DNA of 24,000 nucleotides, from assembly GCA_029838195.1 (NCBI GenBank), contig JALGVJ010000020.1, positions 22,240 to 46,239 of the forward strand, given 5' to 3'. Each line of letters begins with the position of its first letter. Position 1 is the stretch's first letter. The notes under the pieces were generated by a model. It made no database searches. It had not been told where the DNA came from and saw only the letters and a list, made by a program, of their open reading frames with translations. The DNA is from Promethearchaeota archaeon (lineage in GTDB: Archaea; Asgardarchaeota; Lokiarchaeia; Sigyniarchaeales; SOKP01). The position numbers and the translations under genes were made by a program. This document shows, in pieces, positions 1,629-21,335 of the stretch.

Positions 1629-2615
1629 CTACACGCTCATAGAACGCTCTAAACCTTTAATTAATGCCGTTAACATCGCATTTATCGGGGCATTCATTCC
1701 CAACTTTTCTGCAATCTCCACGATTTTCCCATTAATGAAATCGATCTCAGTTTTCTTCCCCTTTAACACGTCTTGTAACATGGAATTTTGATTTCTTGCC
1801 GTTTTTCTTGCCACTTCTATCATGGCTGCCACGTGATCTTTATCTTCCACGGAAAATCCTCCCTTTTTCGCCATCATCACGGCTTCTTTCACGCTTTCTT
1901 CCATTAAACGCCTCACGGGAATCACCTCCAACATCTCTCCATTTCGCAACCGCGTTAATGCCCCAATCGCATTAATCCCAATATTCACGAATATCTTTTC
2001 CCAGCACTCTTTTTGAATATCCTCCACTATAATGGTCTCAAATTCCGCCGATTCAAAAATCTCTTTTAACGTCCTCAATTGTTCCCTCTCTTTATTGCCA
2101 CGGCTCTGAAAAGGAAATCCAATTTTCGTGATCCCCCTGCCAGTATGGACTACGGTCCCCCATTTTATCAAATTTGCACCCTCCGTCGTTAGAGCTCTAA
2201 TTATTTTACCCTCATCACAATACGTTTTCACCCGCTCCTCATTCCCAACTCCATTCTGCAAGATGACCAAAGCTTCACATGATTTAACCAATTCCTTGTA
2301 TTCCCTCATGGCTGCATCTATCGCATGAGCTTTCGTCGTGAGAAAAAGAAAATCAAAAGTACTTGGAATTTCCCCGCTCCTCGCTTTCTCAAAATATTCC
2401 ATTGACGTGAATGCTTTTACCTCAGGACAAATTAATCTCTCATCCCCTTTTACCACGATTAATCCCTCTCGTGAAATCGCCTCCACGTGCCCCTCTCGAC
2501 CAAATAACACCACACGTGTCCGATATTTCTCCGAAGAAATCAAGGACAGGCAACCCCCAAATAAGCTTCCAATGCTCCCGGCACCAATGAATCCAAATGT
2601 AAGTGCTCGCACCAT
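1629..2615 (-). CDS. panE: 2-dehydropantoate 2-reductase (ketopantoate reductase, ApbA/PanE family)
   Basis: N-terminal Rossmann motif GFIGAGSIGSLFGG, LQNGVGNEE, and the C-terminal SMLQDVLKGKKTEIDFINGKIV signature typical of PanE/ApbA. Confidence 0.85.
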   Translation of the reverse strand: MVRALTFGFIGAGSIGSLFGGCLSLISSEKYRTRVVLFGREGHVEAISREGLIVVKGDERLICPEVKAFTSMEYFEKARSGEIPSTFDFLFLTTKAHAIDAAMREYKELVKSCEALVILQNGVGNEERVKTYCDEGKIIRALTTEGANLIKWGTVVHTGRGITKIGFPFQSRGNKEREQLRTLKEIFESAEFETIIVEDIQKECWEKIFVNIGINAIGALTRLRNGEMLEVIPVRRLMEESVKEAVMMAKKGGFSVEDKDHVAAMIEVARKTARNQNSMLQDVLKGKKTEIDFINGKIVEIAEKLGMNAPINAMLTALIKGLERSMSV

Positions 2616-2679
2616 TTAATTGCCTTCCATTCTTCTTTTCTTACTTTTTTTCAATAATTTTTAAATGAATATTAATTCC

Positions 2680-4139: not shown

Positions 4140-7470
<3,331 letters not shown>

Positions 7471-10635: not shown

Positions 10636-11403
10636 TTATCGTTTTTCAAAAATCTTTTCCAAGTTAGAGGGCAATAGAATGACGATTTTTTCGGAAGGAT
10701 CTTGGGAAATATCTCGTATGGTCTGGAGAGTTCGAAGCAATAACGCCCCCGGGTCTTTCGAGAGCGTTGCTGCTGCATTGTAGAGATTTTCTGCTGCGTT
10801 CAATTCTCCTTCGGAAGCAATGATTGCAGCCCTCTTTTCTCGCTCTGCTTCAGCCTGTTTAGCCATGGCTCGTTTCATTTCTGCTGGTAATTCTATCTCT
10901 TGTATCTTTATGCTGATAATGTCAATTCCCCATTCATTGGTTTCCGAATCCACGATTTCTCGAATGGAAGAGGCAATACGTTCTCGTTCGGTCAAAACAC
11001 TATCTAATTCCATGTTTCCGATGACATCTCGCAAGGCCGCTTGAGTATATTGTCTCACGGCGTAGGTATAATTTTCAATTTTTATGACAGCATCTTCCGG
11101 TCTTACGACTTTAAAATATACCACGGTATTGGCGATTACAGGAATATTATCTTTTGTAATGACCTCTTGGCGCGGAATATCTTCCGTCATGATTCTTAAA
11201 TCTACTTTTTTAGCGGATTCGACCCAAGGAAGGATGAACACCACGCCGGGGCCAATAGTTCTATGATATTTTCCTAATCGAAAAATGATCAATCGTTCGT
11301 ATTCCACTACGATTTTGAGACCCGATAAAATCCAAATGAGCAAAATAAAGCCCATGATTCCTCCAAAAATTAAACTAATAAACACTCCTATTTGATAGAT
11401 CAT
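10636..11403 (-). CDS. SPFH/band-7 (stomatin/prohibitin-like) membrane protein
   Basis: N-terminal TM helix, then a typical stomatin core: VVEYERLIIFRLGKY, GPGVVFILPWVE, DLRIMTEDIPRQEVITKDN, ALRDVIGNMELDSVLTERE, IELPAEMKRAMAKQAEAEREKRA. Confidence 0.9.
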   Translation of the reverse strand: MIYQIGVFISLIFGGIMGFILLIWILSGLKIVVEYERLIIFRLGKYHRTIGPGVVFILPWVESAKKVDLRIMTEDIPRQEVITKDNIPVIANTVVYFKVVRPEDAVIKIENYTYAVRQYTQAALRDVIGNMELDSVLTERERIASSIREIVDSETNEWGIDIISIKIQEIELPAEMKRAMAKQAEAEREKRAAIIASEGELNAAENLYNAAATLSKDPGALLLRTLQTIRDISQDPSEKIVILLPSNLEKIFEKR

Positions 11404-14120: not shown

Positions 14121-14196
14121 GCCAGAGTAGCTTAGCCTGGTTGAGCGTCAGCCTGCAGAGTTGATGACGGGAGTTCGAATCTCTCCTCTGGCTCCA
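14121..14196 (+). tRNA. tRNA-Cys (GCA), no intron, CCA encoded
   Basis: Folded by hand. Acceptor stem is GCCAGAG/CTCTGGC (7 bp). D arm is GCTT-AGCCTGGTT-GAGC. Anticodon stem is TCAGC/GTTGA with loop CT-GCA-GA. Variable region is TGAC. T arm is GGGAG-TTCGAAT-CTCTC. The discriminator is U73 (the Cys identity element), followed by CCA at 14194-14196. Confidence 0.92.
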
Positions 14197-14435: not shown

Positions 14436-16178
14436 ATGGTTGAGGAATACGATTTTCTCTTTAAATGCATAGTCGTGGGCGATGGAGGCGTCGGAAAGAC
14501 TGCACTAACAATAAGATTTTCCCAAGGATTTTTTGCTGAAGATTATAAAATGACTATTGGTGTTGATTTTAAGGTTAAAACAATTTCGGTATACGATCCA
14601 AATGGAAATCCGATTCGAGCTAAATTACAAATATGGGATACCGGCGGTCAAGAACGATTTGCGTCTATTCGTCCGATGTATTACCGAGGGGCATTAGGGG
14701 CCTTATTAATTTTTGATTTGACGTCCTATGAAAGTTTTGAGCACTTGCCAAGATGGATCGAAGAAATTCGGGCAAATACGAGTACTGAGATTCCTTTATT
14801 ATTAGTAGGAAATAAAAGTGATTTGGAGGAATCAAGAGCGGTAAGTCCGGAAGAAATTAATGAATTTACCCAAAAATTTAACTTGTTTTACATGGAAACT
14901 TCTGCAAAAACAGGAGCTGGGGTTGGAGATTGTTTTTATATCTTAGCATGCCTCATGATTGGTCAAGGCGTTCCCGAAAAATTAATTGCAGATAATACCG
15001 TCTTCAAACCGGGAGAAATTACAACCGTAGCGGCACCAAGAATACCGGAAGCCGACCTTTCCTACGCAGAGCCTTCTTTTGAGGAAGAATTTCAAGAAGA
15101 ATCTCTTGTTCCAACTCCCGAAAAATTTGATGAATCTCCCTCTCTTGAGAACGAATCATTAGTTCCAGAACCTTTTCAAGAAATACCTTCTGAACCCCCC
15201 CTTTCTAACATGGAGGCAGAACCAAGCAATTCCCCGCCTGCTCCTCCTTCTATGGACGAATCTACCCCGACTTTTACTAAAGCTCCTACTGAATCAATAA
15301 TGCCTACTTCTTCACTTACACCTCCCCCTACCCTTCCATCTCCGGAATCAAAGATTGAACCCTATAAGGAAAGTCTTGCTCCAGCAGCATCTGGCTTAAA
15401 AGAAACAAGTGATTTTACACCCCTTCCTACTCTTCCAAAAACTTCAGAAGGAGAAAAATATAAACCAAAAGTCATTCCATTTTCCCCTAAAACACCTACT
15501 CCCGTACCACCTCCTAAAGATTTCGTGAGACCCGTGGTAGAAGAGTCTCCGATGGAGGAATCCAAAGAAAGGACTCCTTTTATTATACCTCCTTCTAAAA
15601 AAACAGAAGAAACACCTTCTTCCTCGTTGCCATTCATGAACAGGTCCGTACCTGTCGCAGAAGCTCCTTCTGAATCGAAAGAGAGAGAATCTCCCTTAGA
15701 ATTCGCTTCATCAAAAGAAATTTCAAAAAAAGAAAAGAAAAAAAAGGCCAAGAAGAAAAAGAAAGAAGGAAAGGAGAAAAAAATGAAAGAAGAAATCCCA
15801 GAAAAGCCAGTGTTCTTTGATGCTATTGAAAGCACCATCAAACAAAAAGAAGTCCGAAAACCTGATCTTTCAAAACCAAAAAGCTCACTATTCGAAACCT
15901 TGACTCAAAAATCCGAAAGCCCCATTCCAGAAAAACCATCCTTCTTTCAGGAAATTTCACGACAAGCCACTACTCCGAAAAAAGAATTTAAATTAGAAGT
16001 CATACCTTCTCCGGAAGAACCGGGATTAACTCCTCCCCCAAGCCCGGCATCATCCTTTCCTTCCATGCAAGAAAGAAGAGAAAAACAACCGGAGGATATA
16101 GTAATTTGTAGCAATTGCGGTGCTATTCTATCAAGAGATTACATGTATTGCAATAAGTGTGGAAGTAAGTTAGGGTAA
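14436..16178 (+). CDS. Rab-like small GTPase (aa 1-178) fused to a ~380-aa Pro/Glu/Ser/Lys-rich disordered region and a C-terminal zinc ribbon
   Basis: G1 is GDGGVGKT (aa 15-22). Switch-I is TIGVDF (RabF1-like). KLQIWDTGGQERF covers G3 plus a RabF2-like block. YYRGA is present. G4 is GNKSDL and G5 is ETSAK. There is no CAAX/CC prenylation end. The protein ends instead with C558-x2-C-x10-C-x2-C575-GSKLG. Confidence 0.9.
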   Translation: MVEEYDFLFKCIVVGDGGVGKTALTIRFSQGFFAEDYKMTIGVDFKVKTISVYDPNGNPIRAKLQIWDTGGQERFASIRPMYYRGALGALLIFDLTSYESFEHLPRWIEEIRANTSTEIPLLLVGNKSDLEESRAVSPEEINEFTQKFNLFYMETSAKTGAGVGDCFYILACLMIGQGVPEKLIADNTVFKPGEITTVAAPRIPEADLSYAEPSFEEEFQEESLVPTPEKFDESPSLENESLVPEPFQEIPSEPPLSNMEAEPSNSPPAPPSMDESTPTFTKAPTESIMPTSSLTPPPTLPSPESKIEPYKESLAPAASGLKETSDFTPLPTLPKTSEGEKYKPKVIPFSPKTPTPVPPPKDFVRPVVEESPMEESKERTPFIIPPSKKTEETPSSSLPFMNRSVPVAEAPSESKERESPLEFASSKEISKKEKKKKAKKKKKEGKEKKMKEEIPEKPVFFDAIESTIKQKEVRKPDLSKPKSSLFETLTQKSESPIPEKPSFFQEISRQATTPKKEFKLEVIPSPEEPGLTPPPSPASSFPSMQERREKQPEDIVICSNCGAILSRDYMYCNKCGSKLG

Positions 16179-16372: not shown

Positions 16373-17050
16373 TTAGCCTTGTTTAAATCCGCAAATGGGG
16401 CATATGGACAACATTTTATTAATTTTTGAATTGCAATTCGGGCAGATTTTTAGCCCCAACTCTCCTTTTACTTTTGGTTTTGGAAATGATGAGTCCTCGC
16501 TCTCTGGTTTTTGAAAAAAAAGATCTCCTCGTAGAATGTCATTTTTGGCAAGTGTTGCCGGTGGTGATGCCGTAGTGGAGAATGGGGGAGATGGGGCTGA
16601 TTTGCTGTCTGCTTCTCCTACCGTGTAGTAAAAATATTTATTATCGTTATTCTCGATTATTTTTTCTCCCGTTGATAGATGTACTTCAATGTAATAAATA
16701 ATTACGGCTCCTAAGGGAACATCGGGTATCTCAGCGAGGTAATAATCTTCTTTGTTCAGCATGACTACTTGGTACCACGACTTTCCTTGATCCACGCTGA
16801 AAATTAATTGTACTTTTTCAATAGAGGGCTCAAACTCTTCTTCCGAAATTTTTGCGATGATTTTAATGTTCTTTTTAGGGATTTGTTTTTTCTTTTTCTC
16901 CTCTTCTAACAATGCCTCATCCCAAGGAGTATGGCAATAGGGGCAGCTAGTAAACCAATTAGGATATTCTTTTTGACACTTTGAACAGGTTTTGGTATAA
17001 TAGCGAGCTGTTTTGATGCCCAAATCTCTCTTTTTCTTCTCTTTTACCAT
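16373..17050 (-). CDS. Double zinc-ribbon protein with central beta-rich domain and Pro/Ser linker (hypothetical)
   Basis: N-terminal C22-x2-C-x10-C-x2-C39 and C-terminal C203-x2-C-x10-C-x2-C220. The central segment (VQLIFSVDQGKSWYQVVML...VIIYYIEVHLSTGEKI) looks like a beta-sandwich. No family was recognised. Confidence 0.5.
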   Translation of the reverse strand: MVKEKKKRDLGIKTARYYTKTCSKCQKEYPNWFTSCPYCHTPWDEALLEEEKKKKQIPKKNIKIIAKISEEEFEPSIEKVQLIFSVDQGKSWYQVVMLNKEDYYLAEIPDVPLGAVIIYYIEVHLSTGEKIIENNDNKYFYYTVGEADSKSAPSPPFSTTASPPATLAKNDILRGDLFFQKPESEDSSFPKPKVKGELGLKICPNCNSKINKMLSICPICGFKQG

Positions 17051-17151: not shown

Positions 17152-17760
17152 ATGAAGGTCGATCGAGAACACGTGAAAGCGATTTTAGAAGCCATTCATC
17201 TATTATTGGAACTCAAGGTGCTCATCAGGAATAATGTACCCAATTATGAATTTGATGATAAAGAGGCAAGAACCTTTTCCAAATTAATTTCTTCTCTACA
17301 AGAACTTCTTGAACCGCTTTTTCTGGCATATGGACGATTTGAAAATATGGAAAAAGAAAGAGAGGAAGCAAAGAAGGAGATTATCTTGAATCTGGAGGAT
17401 TTCAAAACCACCCCAAATCTCATTCTCATCTCTTCAAACGCCGTGAAAAAAAAATTGAAGAAAATGGGGGTGGATCCCCGAAAATTAATTGCAACCGGAG
17501 GACCTTTCTTTTTTGAGGATTATAAAAAGATTAATCCGTCACTCACTCCTCAAGCGATCAAGAGCATTGAAAAAAAATGTCAAAACTTGATTAATCAACT
17601 AAAAAGGGAAAAATGGAAAAATAAAGATTTGATTTTCATTCAAGAAGAAAACAATCCCACGGACGCCTTAATTTTGGAAAGAATTCACGATATTTCTACT
17701 CTCATTGGAAAGGAAGTAAAAGTAATCAAGATAAAATCTTGGTCCTTACTTGATCAATGA
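17152..17760 (+). CDS. Hypothetical protein (202 aa)
   Basis: ATG start and normal composition. It is divergent from 16373..17050 across a palindromic AT-rich promoter region. No motif was recognised. Confidence 0.45.
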   Translation: MKVDREHVKAILEAIHLLLELKVLIRNNVPNYEFDDKEARTFSKLISSLQELLEPLFLAYGRFENMEKEREEAKKEIILNLEDFKTTPNLILISSNAVKKKLKKMGVDPRKLIATGGPFFFEDYKKINPSLTPQAIKSIEKKCQNLINQLKREKWKNKDLIFIQEENNPTDALILERIHDISTLIGKEVKVIKIKSWSLLDQ

Positions 17761-19019: not shown

Positions 19020-20228
19020 TTGACAACCATAAAAGATAAGAAAAAAAAAGAGGAAAGTAAAGACGAGGAATACTTGATCACCTATACTCGACACTTGGAA
19101 AAGCGATTAAGAAACTTGGAAACGGAAAAACAATTATTAGATGCTGAACGCCTACGATTAGAACAAGAATTGCATAGCTTGAGAAATGAAATAGATAGAT
19201 TAAGAGAGCCCCCCTTAGTAACTGCCACGGTAATCGATGTTCTCGATGATGATGGAAGAGCCATCGTTAAAAGTTCCACCGGACCTAGTTTTGTGGTAAA
19301 TACTAGCAGGAAAGTGAGAAATGAAAAACTTGACCCCGGCATGAGGGTGGCTTTAAATCAAAGAACCTTTGCCATCATGGAAGTGCTGCCCATGAAATTA
19401 GATCCCTTAGTAAAAGGAATGGAGCTCATCGATTCCGTACCAAATGTTTCTTACAATGATGTCGGAGGACTGGATGAACAATTACAAGAAGTCAGGGAAA
19501 CTGTCGAACTACCCTTGAAACGACCTGATTTGTTTAAAAATATTGGAATTGAGCCTCCGAAAGGTGTTCTCTTACATGGTCCACCTGGTACGGGAAAAAC
19601 CTTAGTCGCTAAAGCGGTTGCTCATGAAACCGATGCAACCTTCATTAGAATCATTGGCTCCGAATTAGTGCAAAAGTTCATCGGAGAAGGCGCACGTTTG
19701 GTTCGTGAAGTGTTTAATTTAGCAAAACAAAAAGCACCGACCATCCTTTTCATTGATGAATTGGATGCCATCGGTTCTCAGCGGTTGCAAATTGCAACTT
19801 CGGGAGATCGAGAGGTTCAAAGAACCCTCATGCAACTGCTAAGTGAATTAGACGGCTTTGAACAGCGGGGAGATGTAAAAATTATTGGCGCCACTAACCG
19901 AATTGATATTTTAGATCCTGCTTTATTAAGGCCTGGAAGATTTGACCGCATCATCGAATTTCCCATTCCTTCTGAAGAAGGACGAGAAGCGATCTTTAAA
20001 ATTCATATGAGAAACTTGCGCATTGATGAGCGTGTAGATGTTAAAAAATTAGTAAGTCTTACGGAAGGGGCAACGGGAGCCGATATTAAAGCTATCTGCG
20101 TCGAAGCGGGAATGTTTGCGATTCGAAAAGAAGCACAAGTTATTACTTTTGAAGACTTTGTTGACGCAGTGAATAAAGTCATGAAAAAAGCACGAGAAAC
20201 ACCTTTAGATTCAAAATTATATTCCTAA
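19020..20228 (+). CDS. pan: Proteasome-activating nucleotidase PAN (Rpt-like AAA+ ATPase)
   Basis: N-terminal coiled coil ([26 protein letters not shown]...), an OB segment, Walker A GPPGTGKT, Walker [10 protein letters not shown], second region of homology, and a C-terminal HbYX-type end (..KLYS). TTG is the only available start upstream of the coiled coil. Confidence 0.95.
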
Positions 20229-20849: not shown

Positions 20850-21335
20850 ATGGTTAAATTACCAAAAGAAATGCAAAAAAAAGAAAAAGCCCGACCAAGA
20901 AGACCTCAAAAAGTAGTGAAAAGAGAGGGTACCTCACAATTTAGTTCCAGACAAATGAGGCGTAAAATGAAACAACAAGGCATCGATCTGGAACAAATTG
21001 AAGCAGAACGAGTGATTATTGAACAACCGCATCAAACCTTAGTAATTGAAGAACCCGAAATTGTATTGATGAAACAAGGGGGACAAGAAATTTATCAAAT
21101 TATTGGGAATGCTGAACCAATGGAACCCGAGCAGGTCATTCCCTTACAAAAGGAAGAAGGGCTGGAAAGCAAGGGATCCCCAGAAGAAACCGAACTCAAA
21201 CCCACCATTACAGAAGAAGATATCATGCTGGTAGCAGCTCAATCCAAGGTAGATAAAAAAGAAGCGGAAGCGGCTTTAATTGAAACGAATGGCGATATTG
21301 CAAAAGCGATTCTTCTTTTAAAAAATAGAATCTAA
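20850..21335 (+). CDS. nac: Nascent polypeptide-associated complex protein (NAC domain plus C-terminal UBA)
   Basis: NAC domain: RQMRRKMKQQGIDLEQIEAERVIIEQPHQTLVIEEPEIVLMKQGGQEIYQIIG. UBA domain: EEDIMLVAAQSKVDKKEAEAALIETNGDIAKAILLLK. It has an extra basic N-terminal extension and an acidic linker. Confidence 0.85.
   Translation: MVKLPKEMQKKEKARPRRPQKVVKREGTSQFSSRQMRRKMKQQGIDLEQIEAERVIIEQPHQTLVIEEPEIVLMKQGGQEIYQIIGNAEPMEPEQVIPLQKEEGLESKGSPEETELKPTITEEDIMLVAAQSKVDKKEAEAALIETNGDIAKAILLLKNRI

Follow-up and report, generated by a model that had tools for sequence, protein, structure and literature searches.

A 24,000-nucleotide (nt) stretch of DNA from a Promethearchaeota archaeon (contig JALGVJ010000020.1; the whole stretch is referred to here as the window) encodes a 580 amino acid (aa) protein in which a Rab-like GTP-binding (G) domain is followed by a tail of about 360-380 mostly disordered residues and, at the very C-terminus, by a predicted zinc ribbon. 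The gene is the Lokiarchaeial orthologue of the Rab-like GTP switches referred to as Asgard RasL, and its architecture defines a syntenic and single-copy-looking orthologue family of about 200 database clusters, in which the tail appears from its conservation to be under purifying selection at the level of short motifs and is not filler. All archaeal Rab-like sequences analysed previously were without C-terminal cysteines, extended C-termini, polybasic regions or a membrane signal, and a localisation via protein-protein interactions was suggested for them (Surkont and Pereira-Leal, PMC4915359). The same was reported for Thorarchaeota and MK-D1, and the GTPase architectures listed in that study include only unnamed '?' domains (Tran et al., PMC10933270). 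In the literature searched, no account was found of a Rab-like GTPase that combines a disordered tail with a zinc ribbon. As far as this search reaches, the Asgard Rab-like type of G domain is known, the conserved tail, the ribbon and the pairing with a convergent neighbouring gene are undescribed, and the family is a conserved and hitherto undescribed exception to the published generalisation on archaeal Rab-like tails.

The G domain matches the Pfam Ras family (PF00071) at aa 10-171 with an E-value of 5.7e-53 and 179 bits (cut-off 21.6), and TIGR00231 with 96.5 bits (cut-off 42.5). The G1-G5 boxes are intact (GDGGVGKT at 15-22, T40, DTGGQ at 68-72, NKSD at 126-129 and SAK at 156-158), which together with the profile scores places the protein in the Ras superfamily. 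The family motifs RabF1-F5, defined by Pereira-Leal and Seabra (2000) and used as such in PMC4915359, are all five recognisable as IGVDF (41-45), KLQIWDTGGQE (63-73), YYRGA (82-86), LIFDLT (91-96) and RFASIR. Conservation was assessed throughout on an alignment of 119 full-length members taken from the best 120 database matches. Across this alignment the residues of the G1-G5 boxes are invariant, more than 100 columns of the G domain are invariant or nearly so, and the mean pairwise identity of the domain is 84%. The domain is prolonged by a conserved C-terminal extension that reads ...CLMIGxGVPxxLI..TVFxPGxI and is modelled by AlphaFold2 (AF2) with a predicted local distance difference test score (pLDDT) of 94 for aa 181-190 and 80 for aa 191-200.

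The best 60 sequence matches in the PDB are exclusively eukaryotic Rabs or the Thorarchaeota Rab 7EZB and include no MglA; Rab30 comes first at 7e-48, followed by Rab8A, Rab1, Rab2, Rab11, Ypt1 and Sec4, and 7EZB is matched at 2.7e-43. The identity to Rab1 and Rab11 is 44-45%. BLASTP against reference sequences, of which the bit scores are only indicative, gave 153 bits for Rab11A, 151 for Rab1A, 137 for Rab5A and 111 for Rab7A, followed by Ran (102), HRas (95), RhoA (93), MglA (38, at 24% identity) and Arf1 (35). An MglA-like or generic prokaryotic Ras-like identity is ruled out by these 38 bits as opposed to about 150 for the Rabs. An Arf identity is ruled out by the Arf1 score and by a Pfam Arf match of 4e-9 as compared to 6e-53 for Ras, and the N-terminus (MVEEYDFLFK) passes straight into β1, without the N-terminal amphipathic helix of an Arf. 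Asgard homologues, the match to 7EZB and the far lower scores of Arf1 and MglA all assign the protein to the Asgard Rab-like (RasL) group. By sequence similarity it is Rab-like, with Ras, Rho, Ran, Arf and MglA all more distant than Rab. To name it a Rab would be unjustified, because published trees group Asgard RasL with Rab/Ras/Rho/Ran and not specifically as the sister of Rab, and because the prenylation motif is absent; another published analysis left the position of Asgard RasL unresolved. The initial annotation had proposed an Asgard Rab-like small GTPase on the strength of the G1-G5 boxes and four of the RabF-type motifs, all of which are located where it had placed them. The Lokiarchaeota homologues and the uniformly Rab or Thor-Rab structural matches bear it out, and a grouping with MglA or generic prokaryotic families, which would have spoken against it, is not seen by similarity.

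The tail between aa 199 and 554 consists of 18% P, 15.7% E, 13.5% S, 12.1% K and 6.5% T, so that these five residues make up 66% of it compared with 30% of the G domain. In the AF2 model, a check that the initial annotation had recommended, 273 residues have a pLDDT below 50 and are taken as disordered. The first description of the tail as P/E/S/T/K-rich and mostly disordered is thereby upheld, but not its description as generic low-complexity sequence, since the tail contains conserved motifs, a charged helix and a segment of fixed length. In the alignment about ten short linear motifs stand out as islands amid divergent sequence and occur in 112-118 of the 119 members. From the G domain onwards the conserved parts of the tail are (D/E)(F/Y)xAPPVPEP repeats, EFKTP(E/D)EIL, YKPKxxPFSxxxPxPxPxPxxF, PFxV, SLxDYMPE, a Lys/Glu-rich helix, SLFQTLTQK, FxPF, SKLRIIPNV and the terminal ribbon. 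The mean pairwise identity of the tail outside the ribbon is only 45%, and it is the presence of invariant residues inside this otherwise divergent sequence that argues for selection on the tail.

Most members carry two to three copies of the (D/E)(F/Y)xAPPVPEP repeat in the acidic spacer, with PP[VI]PE present in 114 of the 119; the copies of the window protein are degenerate (SLVPTPE, SLVPEP and PPAPP), and its equivalent of EFKTP(E/D)EIL is EPYKESLA at aa 308-315. Within the motif at aa 342-363 residues P344, P348, F349, P360 and F363 are invariant in all 119 sequences, and AF2 confidence is raised here (pLDDT 58-69) as nowhere else in the non-helical tail. The poly-Lys patch KKEKKKKAKKKKKEGKEKKM (aa 431-450, nt 15726-15785) is modelled as part of a helix at 431-452 with a pLDDT of 77, and close homologues all have K435 and K439. 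The patch was correctly described in the window protein, but it is not shared by every member of the family: it is absent from P0189, reduced in P0152 and relocated in P0155, and these most divergent members retain all other motifs and the ribbon. In the window protein SFFQEIS and FKLEVIPSPEE are the equivalents of SxxFxPF and SKLRIIPNV, respectively, and a RIIP-type motif is found in 118 of the 119 members.

The blocks of the tail differ in how far their length is constrained. The acidic block measures 100-216 aa and the Lys/Glu block 33-149 aa across the family, in both cases through tandem duplications, which in the latter are plainly visible. The distance from F486 to C558, in contrast to the other blocks, stays within 64-80 aa (standard deviation 3.2) family-wide. 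Charge is segregated between the blocks, with a family median of -18 for the acidic and +11 for the basic block. Neither a transmembrane segment (maximum Kyte-Doolittle value of 0.69 over a 19-residue window) nor a strong amphipathic helix (the hydrophobic moment reaches at most 0.55) was found in the tail. An informal comparison with eukaryotic motif classes (PTAP, YPxL, EVH1 FPPPP, WW PPxY, MIM2 and the clathrin box) produced no convincing match in the tail.

The C-terminal module is a predicted zinc ribbon of the PF13240/zinc_ribbon_2 type. Pfam Zn_Ribbon_1 (PF13240) matches at aa 558-579 with an E-value of 2.4e-5 and 24.4 bits, just below the cut-off of 25 bits, and the same family appears in the precomputed Pfam lists of many homologues, as a weak match where the strength is stated. 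AF2 assigns the ribbon a pLDDT of 83-89 (aa 551-580) with strands at 555-557 and 564-566. The initial annotation had read a terminal C558-x2-C-x10-C-x2-C575 in the place of a prenylation motif, and had suggested the domain search to which the Pfam matches to the ribbon and to Ras belong; both parts of this reading are confirmed. The cysteines at 558, 561, 572 and 575 are the only ones in the tail, the protein ends ...CNKCGSKLG with no prenylatable CC, CXC, CCXX or CAAX motif, and the ribbon is present in all 119 members, with 21-22 aa between the first cysteine and the end. At 76% its mean pairwise identity is close to that of the G domain. Besides the cysteines G562, L565, S566, Y569, N573, K574 and G576 are invariant, and it is the invariance of these non-cysteine residues that points to a specific binding surface.

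Two other kinds of zinc finger were compared and rejected. The RanBP2/NZF finger has the signature W-x-C-x2-C-x3-N-x6-C-x2-C with a TF/φ ubiquitin-binding dipeptide; the ribbon shares its cysteine spacing but contains no Trp, has Leu at the Asn position and GA after the second cysteine, and no Pfam zf-RanBP match was obtained for the GTPase at E<=0.01. FYVE domains employ eight zinc ligands and a basic R(R/K)HHCR motif, and a FYVE or other lipid-binding finger is ruled out by the presence of four cysteines only and no Pfam FYVE match.

The architecture, which the initial annotation did not recognise, is not a one-off but a family trait: 119 of the best 120 database matches have a length of 531-660 aa and carry CxxC-x(8-14)-CxxC no more than 8 residues before the C-terminus, the single exception being a rotifer multi-Rab protein. 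A profile of the tail only (aa 338-580, 20 sequences) was searched against 1.84 billion representatives and retrieved 27 clusters below 1e-30, all of them full-length (560-606 aa) or fragments at contig ends. Matches weaker than about 1e-28 are mostly generic multi-zinc-ribbon proteins aligned over the ribbon only, along with P0152, P0155 and P0189. A second search added about 80 clusters, with a Ras domain in every full-length one. On these sequence searches the tail exists solely in this GTPase family. A scan of a genome collection with the tail alignment was swamped by the poly-Lys pattern and returned five loci. In all 13 loci examined the long GTPase is present once, at the same syntenic position, which is unusual among the highly paralogous small GTPases of Asgard archaea. 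NCBIfam has no specific family model for the GTPase or its neighbour beyond the generic small-GTPase domain.

The chance that the open reading frame (ORF) is an artefact, in which a small GTPase was joined to an unrelated ORF by a frameshift or an assembly join between 14970 and 16100, is vanishingly small. The frame is continuous over 580 codons with no internal stop, the identical protein is present on at least two independent assemblies, and the same order of parts is shared by 119 full-length homologues from many assemblies, which by itself rules out such a fusion. Since the tail is never seen joined to anything other than a Ras domain, the objection raised with the initial annotation fails.

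Source labels of the family are mostly Promethearchaeota or Lokiarchaeota, and the exact protein has been deposited from Promethearchaeota (Lokiarchaeota) metagenome-assembled genomes (MAGs) as a 'GTP-binding protein'. The complete archaeal 23S ribosomal RNA (rRNA) inside the window attests to the archaeal origin of the DNA. Scattered Hermod-, Thor-, Hod- and Odin- labels and one Zixibacteria label are suspected to reflect inconsistent MAG naming or mis-binning. The last belongs to P0119 (HUU77178.1, on a 2.6-kb contig labelled 'candidate division Zixibacteria'), which is 46% identical to the query over its full length and for this reason is almost certainly on a mis-binned contig. The exact sequence of the window GTPase was also found on GCA_054387035.1, and at codon 51 (14586-14588) the window protein has Ser where the database cluster representative P0001 has Thr, so that closely related strains exist. 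P0233 (1208 aa) and P0266 (1249 aa) contain many tandem CxxCGAFxSxDAxxCxxCG ribbons, of the type seen in the GTPase, in acidic disorder followed by transmembrane helices and TPR repeats, and look like a separate family of ribbon-array membrane proteins.

The candidate partner of the GTPase is the gene directly downstream, a homologue of which is present in convergent orientation in all 13 loci. In one of these (L012) the flanking genes differ and the pair is kept, with the stop codons 13 bp apart. AF2 models its product at a mean pLDDT of 78; from the N-terminus it is predicted to consist of a C4 ribbon, a short helix, a β-sandwich with a pLDDT above 90, a disordered linker with the conserved motif TIFGKPQTxIDP and a second C4 ribbon at the C-terminus. 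Both ribbons have the C-x2-C-x10-C-x2-C spacing of the GTPase ribbon. Foldseek recovered only generic Ig/CBM-like sandwiches for the model (best E-value 3.8e-4), which give no functional assignment, and neither a transmembrane nor an amphipathic-helix anchor was found in the protein. The neighbour family comprises 175 members, all annotated as hypothetical, which carry the same taxon labels as the GTPase family and share many contigs with it. Wider synteny is also kept and includes a class IV aminotransferase, MazG, NrdD and a DUF2100/SepCysE-like gene; because of this broader conservation the adjacency alone is no proof of a functional link. The features of the gene, of its neighbour and of the surrounding locus are collected in the following table.

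Features of the GTPase gene, its convergent neighbour and the locus (window coordinates unless a related locus is named; aa, residues of the GTPase)
Feature	Position	Strand	Details
GTPase gene, whole	14436..16178	+	ATG start, 580 aa, stop codon included, uninterrupted frame
G domain and conserved C-terminal extension (aa 1-198)	14436..15029	+	Pfam Ras E 5.7e-53, PDB matches, conservation, AF2
Acidic Pro-rich spacer (aa 199-340)	15030..15455	+	28 D/E against 7 K/R, 29 Pro; AF2 pLDDT <50
Motif Y-K-P-K-x-x-P-F-S-x-x-x-P-x-P-x-P-x-P-x-x-F (aa 342-363)	15459..15524	+	114/119 members
Lys/Glu-rich basic helix with poly-Lys patch (aa 429-452)	15720..15791	+	Net charge +11
Motif SLF(E/Q)TLTQK (aa 484-492)	15885..15911	+	112/119 members; F486 and L489 invariant
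Pre-ribbon segment with SFFQEIS (502-508) and FKLEVIPSPEE (518-528)	15939..16019	+	Motif equivalents, fixed length
Predicted C-terminal C4 zinc ribbon (aa 555-580), IVICSNCGAILSRDYMYCNKCGSKLG	16098..16175	+	Pfam PF13240, invariant Cys, AF2
Candidate partner, ribbon at each end	16373..17050	-	225 aa; convergent neighbour in 13/13 loci
Antisense ORF within the tail-coding region	15362..15841	-	159 aa, Phe/Ser-rich
23S rRNA	4142..7465	+	3324 nt
SPFH/Band-7	10636..11403	-	
tRNA-Cys(GCA)	14121..14196	+	240 nt upstream of the GTPase gene
DUF2100 protein (PF09873)	17152..17760	+	Just past the neighbour
PAN	19020..20228	+	
NAC/UBA	20850..21335	+	
Short upstream GTPase, L003	4114-4623		
Short upstream GTPase, L005	3335-4273		
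Short upstream GTPase, L007	~2142-2642		
Short upstream GTPase, L008	~1727-2179		
Short upstream GTPase, L010	~2186-2650		
Short upstream GTPase, L012	3183-4139		
Short upstream GTPase, L013	973-1533		
PEMT/ICMT-like gene, L003	9596-10237	+	213 aa, weak Pfam matches

In most of the related loci a second, short small-GTPase gene lies upstream of the long one and encodes a Ras- or Gtr1/RagA-like protein of 169-318 aa, which in L003, L007, L008 and L010 was measured to be 31-34% identical to the G domain of the window protein. The window is without this gene, and the interval is occupied by the tRNA-Cys gene. The DUF2100 protein is listed as 'SepCysE' in the precomputed Pfam table, and the proximity of tRNA-Cys to a SepCysE-like gene may bear on tRNA-dependent cysteine synthesis. 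The antisense ORF simply mirrors the Lys/Glu codons and does not represent a gene. The 23S rRNA exceeds its model of 2987 positions by about 340 nt, which are either expansion segments or an insertion, and because neither 16S nor 5S rRNA is found in the 24-kb window it appears to be unlinked. The PEMT/ICMT-like gene of L003, named after its matches to the family of isoprenylcysteine carboxyl methyltransferase, lies two genes from the pair, probably by coincidence. Apart from the genes for the SPFH/Band-7 protein, the proteasome-activating nucleotidase (PAN) and the NAC/UBA protein the remaining genes of the window serve pantothenate/CoA and nucleotide housekeeping, and besides the neighbour none is obviously linked to the GTPase.

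It is proposed, tentatively and stopping just short of calling it probable, that the protein acts as a tethered Rab-like switch and hub, and that contacts of its zinc-ribbon end with other proteins, not lipidation, determine where it is localised. Together with the ribbon, the segment of about 70 residues and fixed length in front of it would dock the GTPase at a specific partner or site; the strongest candidate would be the neighbour with its β-sandwich and two zinc ribbons, and the basic helix may assist on acidic surfaces. The long flexible spacer would allow the G domain to sample a volume tens of nanometres across, whilst the linear motifs could bring in additional factors or bind back onto the G domain and the GTP/GDP state would gate effector binding. 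Localisation would then result from protein contacts instead of lipidation. A spacer-like role is suggested for the acidic and Lys/Glu blocks because they vary in length whereas the pre-ribbon segment is fixed. Several points weigh against this proposal. The GTPase and neighbour genes are convergent and cannot be co-transcribed, and their conserved adjacency lies within a broader syntenic block, so that co-inheritance without a functional link is possible. Ribbons of the PF13240 type are generic and, to our knowledge, have no known ligand. The AF2 model is poor over the first 80 residues (pLDDT 44-72), possibly owing to a shallow alignment of closely related sequences, and because of this low confidence a docking of the tail onto the G domain cannot be read from it. 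The further-reaching idea that GTPase and neighbour together form a lipid-independent localisation system, with a ribbon-mediated anchor and a motif-rich tether, as a prokaryotic precursor or analogue both of the logic of the Rab hypervariable tail and of the motif-hub adaptors in eukaryotic trafficking, is speculative and on balance unlikely.

The ribbon occupies the position of the prenylated cysteines of Rabs, which led the initial annotation to suggest a different targeting or tethering logic, and it would be a plausible stand-in for a membrane anchor. It has to be asked whether the membrane could be contacted directly, with the Lys patch, alone or together with the ribbon, binding the anionic archaeal membrane in place of prenylation and the tail acting as a long hypervariable linker in the manner of K-Ras4B. 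The net charge of the basic helix, which equals the family median, would suit this role, and a non-lipid localisation signal for archaeal Rab-like proteins is expected in published work. However, the basic block mixes Lys with Glu in its helix and is not purely polybasic, and about ten conserved non-basic motifs and an invariant polar ribbon surface would be left unexplained. Because the patch is missing, reduced or displaced in some members that keep all other motifs, and because the tail offers no hydrophobic element in the form of a transmembrane segment or strong amphipathic helix, direct poly-Lys binding is weaker than the reading based on protein contacts and must be considered unlikely.

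Neither of two further explanations, both improbable, involves the membrane. A zinc ribbon beside a Lys-rich segment is a common nucleic-acid-binding combination, and the protein could be a nucleic-acid- or ribosome-associated GTPase whose ribbon and Lys-rich helix bind RNA or DNA under the regulation of the G domain. Automatic labels of ribbon-only fragments as 'ribosomal protein L40E' or 'RPABC4/Spt4' and the tRNA-Cys, NAC and PUA genes at the locus seem to agree with this, yet the labels come from truncated fragments that match ribbons in general, the genes around the GTPase have unrelated housekeeping functions, some members do without the Lys block, and a Rab-like G domain with RabF-type effector motifs has no known precedent in such a setting. 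The tail might alternatively be a condensate-forming or entropic scaffold, in which the acidic (about -18) and basic (about +11) blocks drive association such as coacervation, the G domain regulates this and the motifs are secondary. Charge-block patterning is indeed strong and conserved across the family and the tail is long and disordered, but members without a basic block exist, and invariant Pro and Phe residues at specific positions as well as the invariant ribbon favour stereospecific contacts over bulk electrostatics.

With eukaryotic Rabs (Rab1, Rab8, Rab11, Rab30 and Ypt1) the family shares a G domain that is 44-50% identical, the five RabF-type motifs, the catalytic Gln and all nucleotide-binding boxes, although the Rab1 and Rab11 reference sequences read DTAGQ and GDSGVGKS where the GTPase has DTGGQ and GDGGVGKT. 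Unlike Rabs, it carries no CC or CXC, its last cysteines belong to a C4 knuckle 6-9 residues from the end, and its tail runs to about 380 residues compared to about 30-40. Asgard RasL proteins such as Thor-Rab (7EZB, E 2.7e-43) have the same class of G domain, a common origin at phylum level and likewise no lipidation machinery. Those described are single-domain proteins or roadblock/longin fusions and are reported to lack a C-terminal extension, terminal cysteines and a polybasic region, whereas the window GTPase family has all three in addition to a conserved gene partner. In polybasic-tail GTPases (K-Ras4B, Rit/Rin and some Rho proteins) a Ras-superfamily G domain likewise has Lys-rich sequence close to its C-terminus, but the Lys/Glu helix of the present family lies about 100 residues before the end of the protein, has no paired lipid and is dispensable in some orthologues.

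Other likenesses are analogies only. EEA1 is a long tether with a C-terminal zinc-binding FYVE domain, epsin and Eps15 have motif-rich disordered tails, and RABL6/RBEL1-type proteins are Rab-like with long non-prenylated C-terminal regions. The logic in common is a GTPase-dependent end that is linked by a long extended or disordered element to a zinc-containing or anchoring end, with many short conserved motifs placed in the disorder. Sequence homology to these proteins is absent, the GTPase is here built into the tether itself, and its ribbon has four cysteines as opposed to the eight zinc ligands and basic PI3P motif of FYVE. TonB contains rigid (Glu-Pro)n/(Lys-Pro)n spacers, and the EPEPE and KPKP runs of several family members suggest, by analogy, an extended polyproline-II spacer. 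The GTPase differs from TonB in being cytoplasmic, in having no TonB C-terminal domain and in that its repeats are broken by conserved motifs.

How Asgard Rab/Ras-like GTPases are localised has been a puzzle since 2015, and this family offers a testable answer that requires no lipid anchors. Its near-invariant G domain, candidate partner gene and motifs that can be synthesised as peptides make the question of localisation experimentally approachable. It also illustrates, with unusual clarity for a prokaryote, motif-level selection on a long disordered region. Should the tail prove to be just a spacer, the family would add modestly to the known range of Asgard GTPase architectures. If, on the other hand, the ribbon and its partner do form an anchor, the pair would illustrate the way in which Asgard archaea placed their Rab-like switches before prenylation existed.

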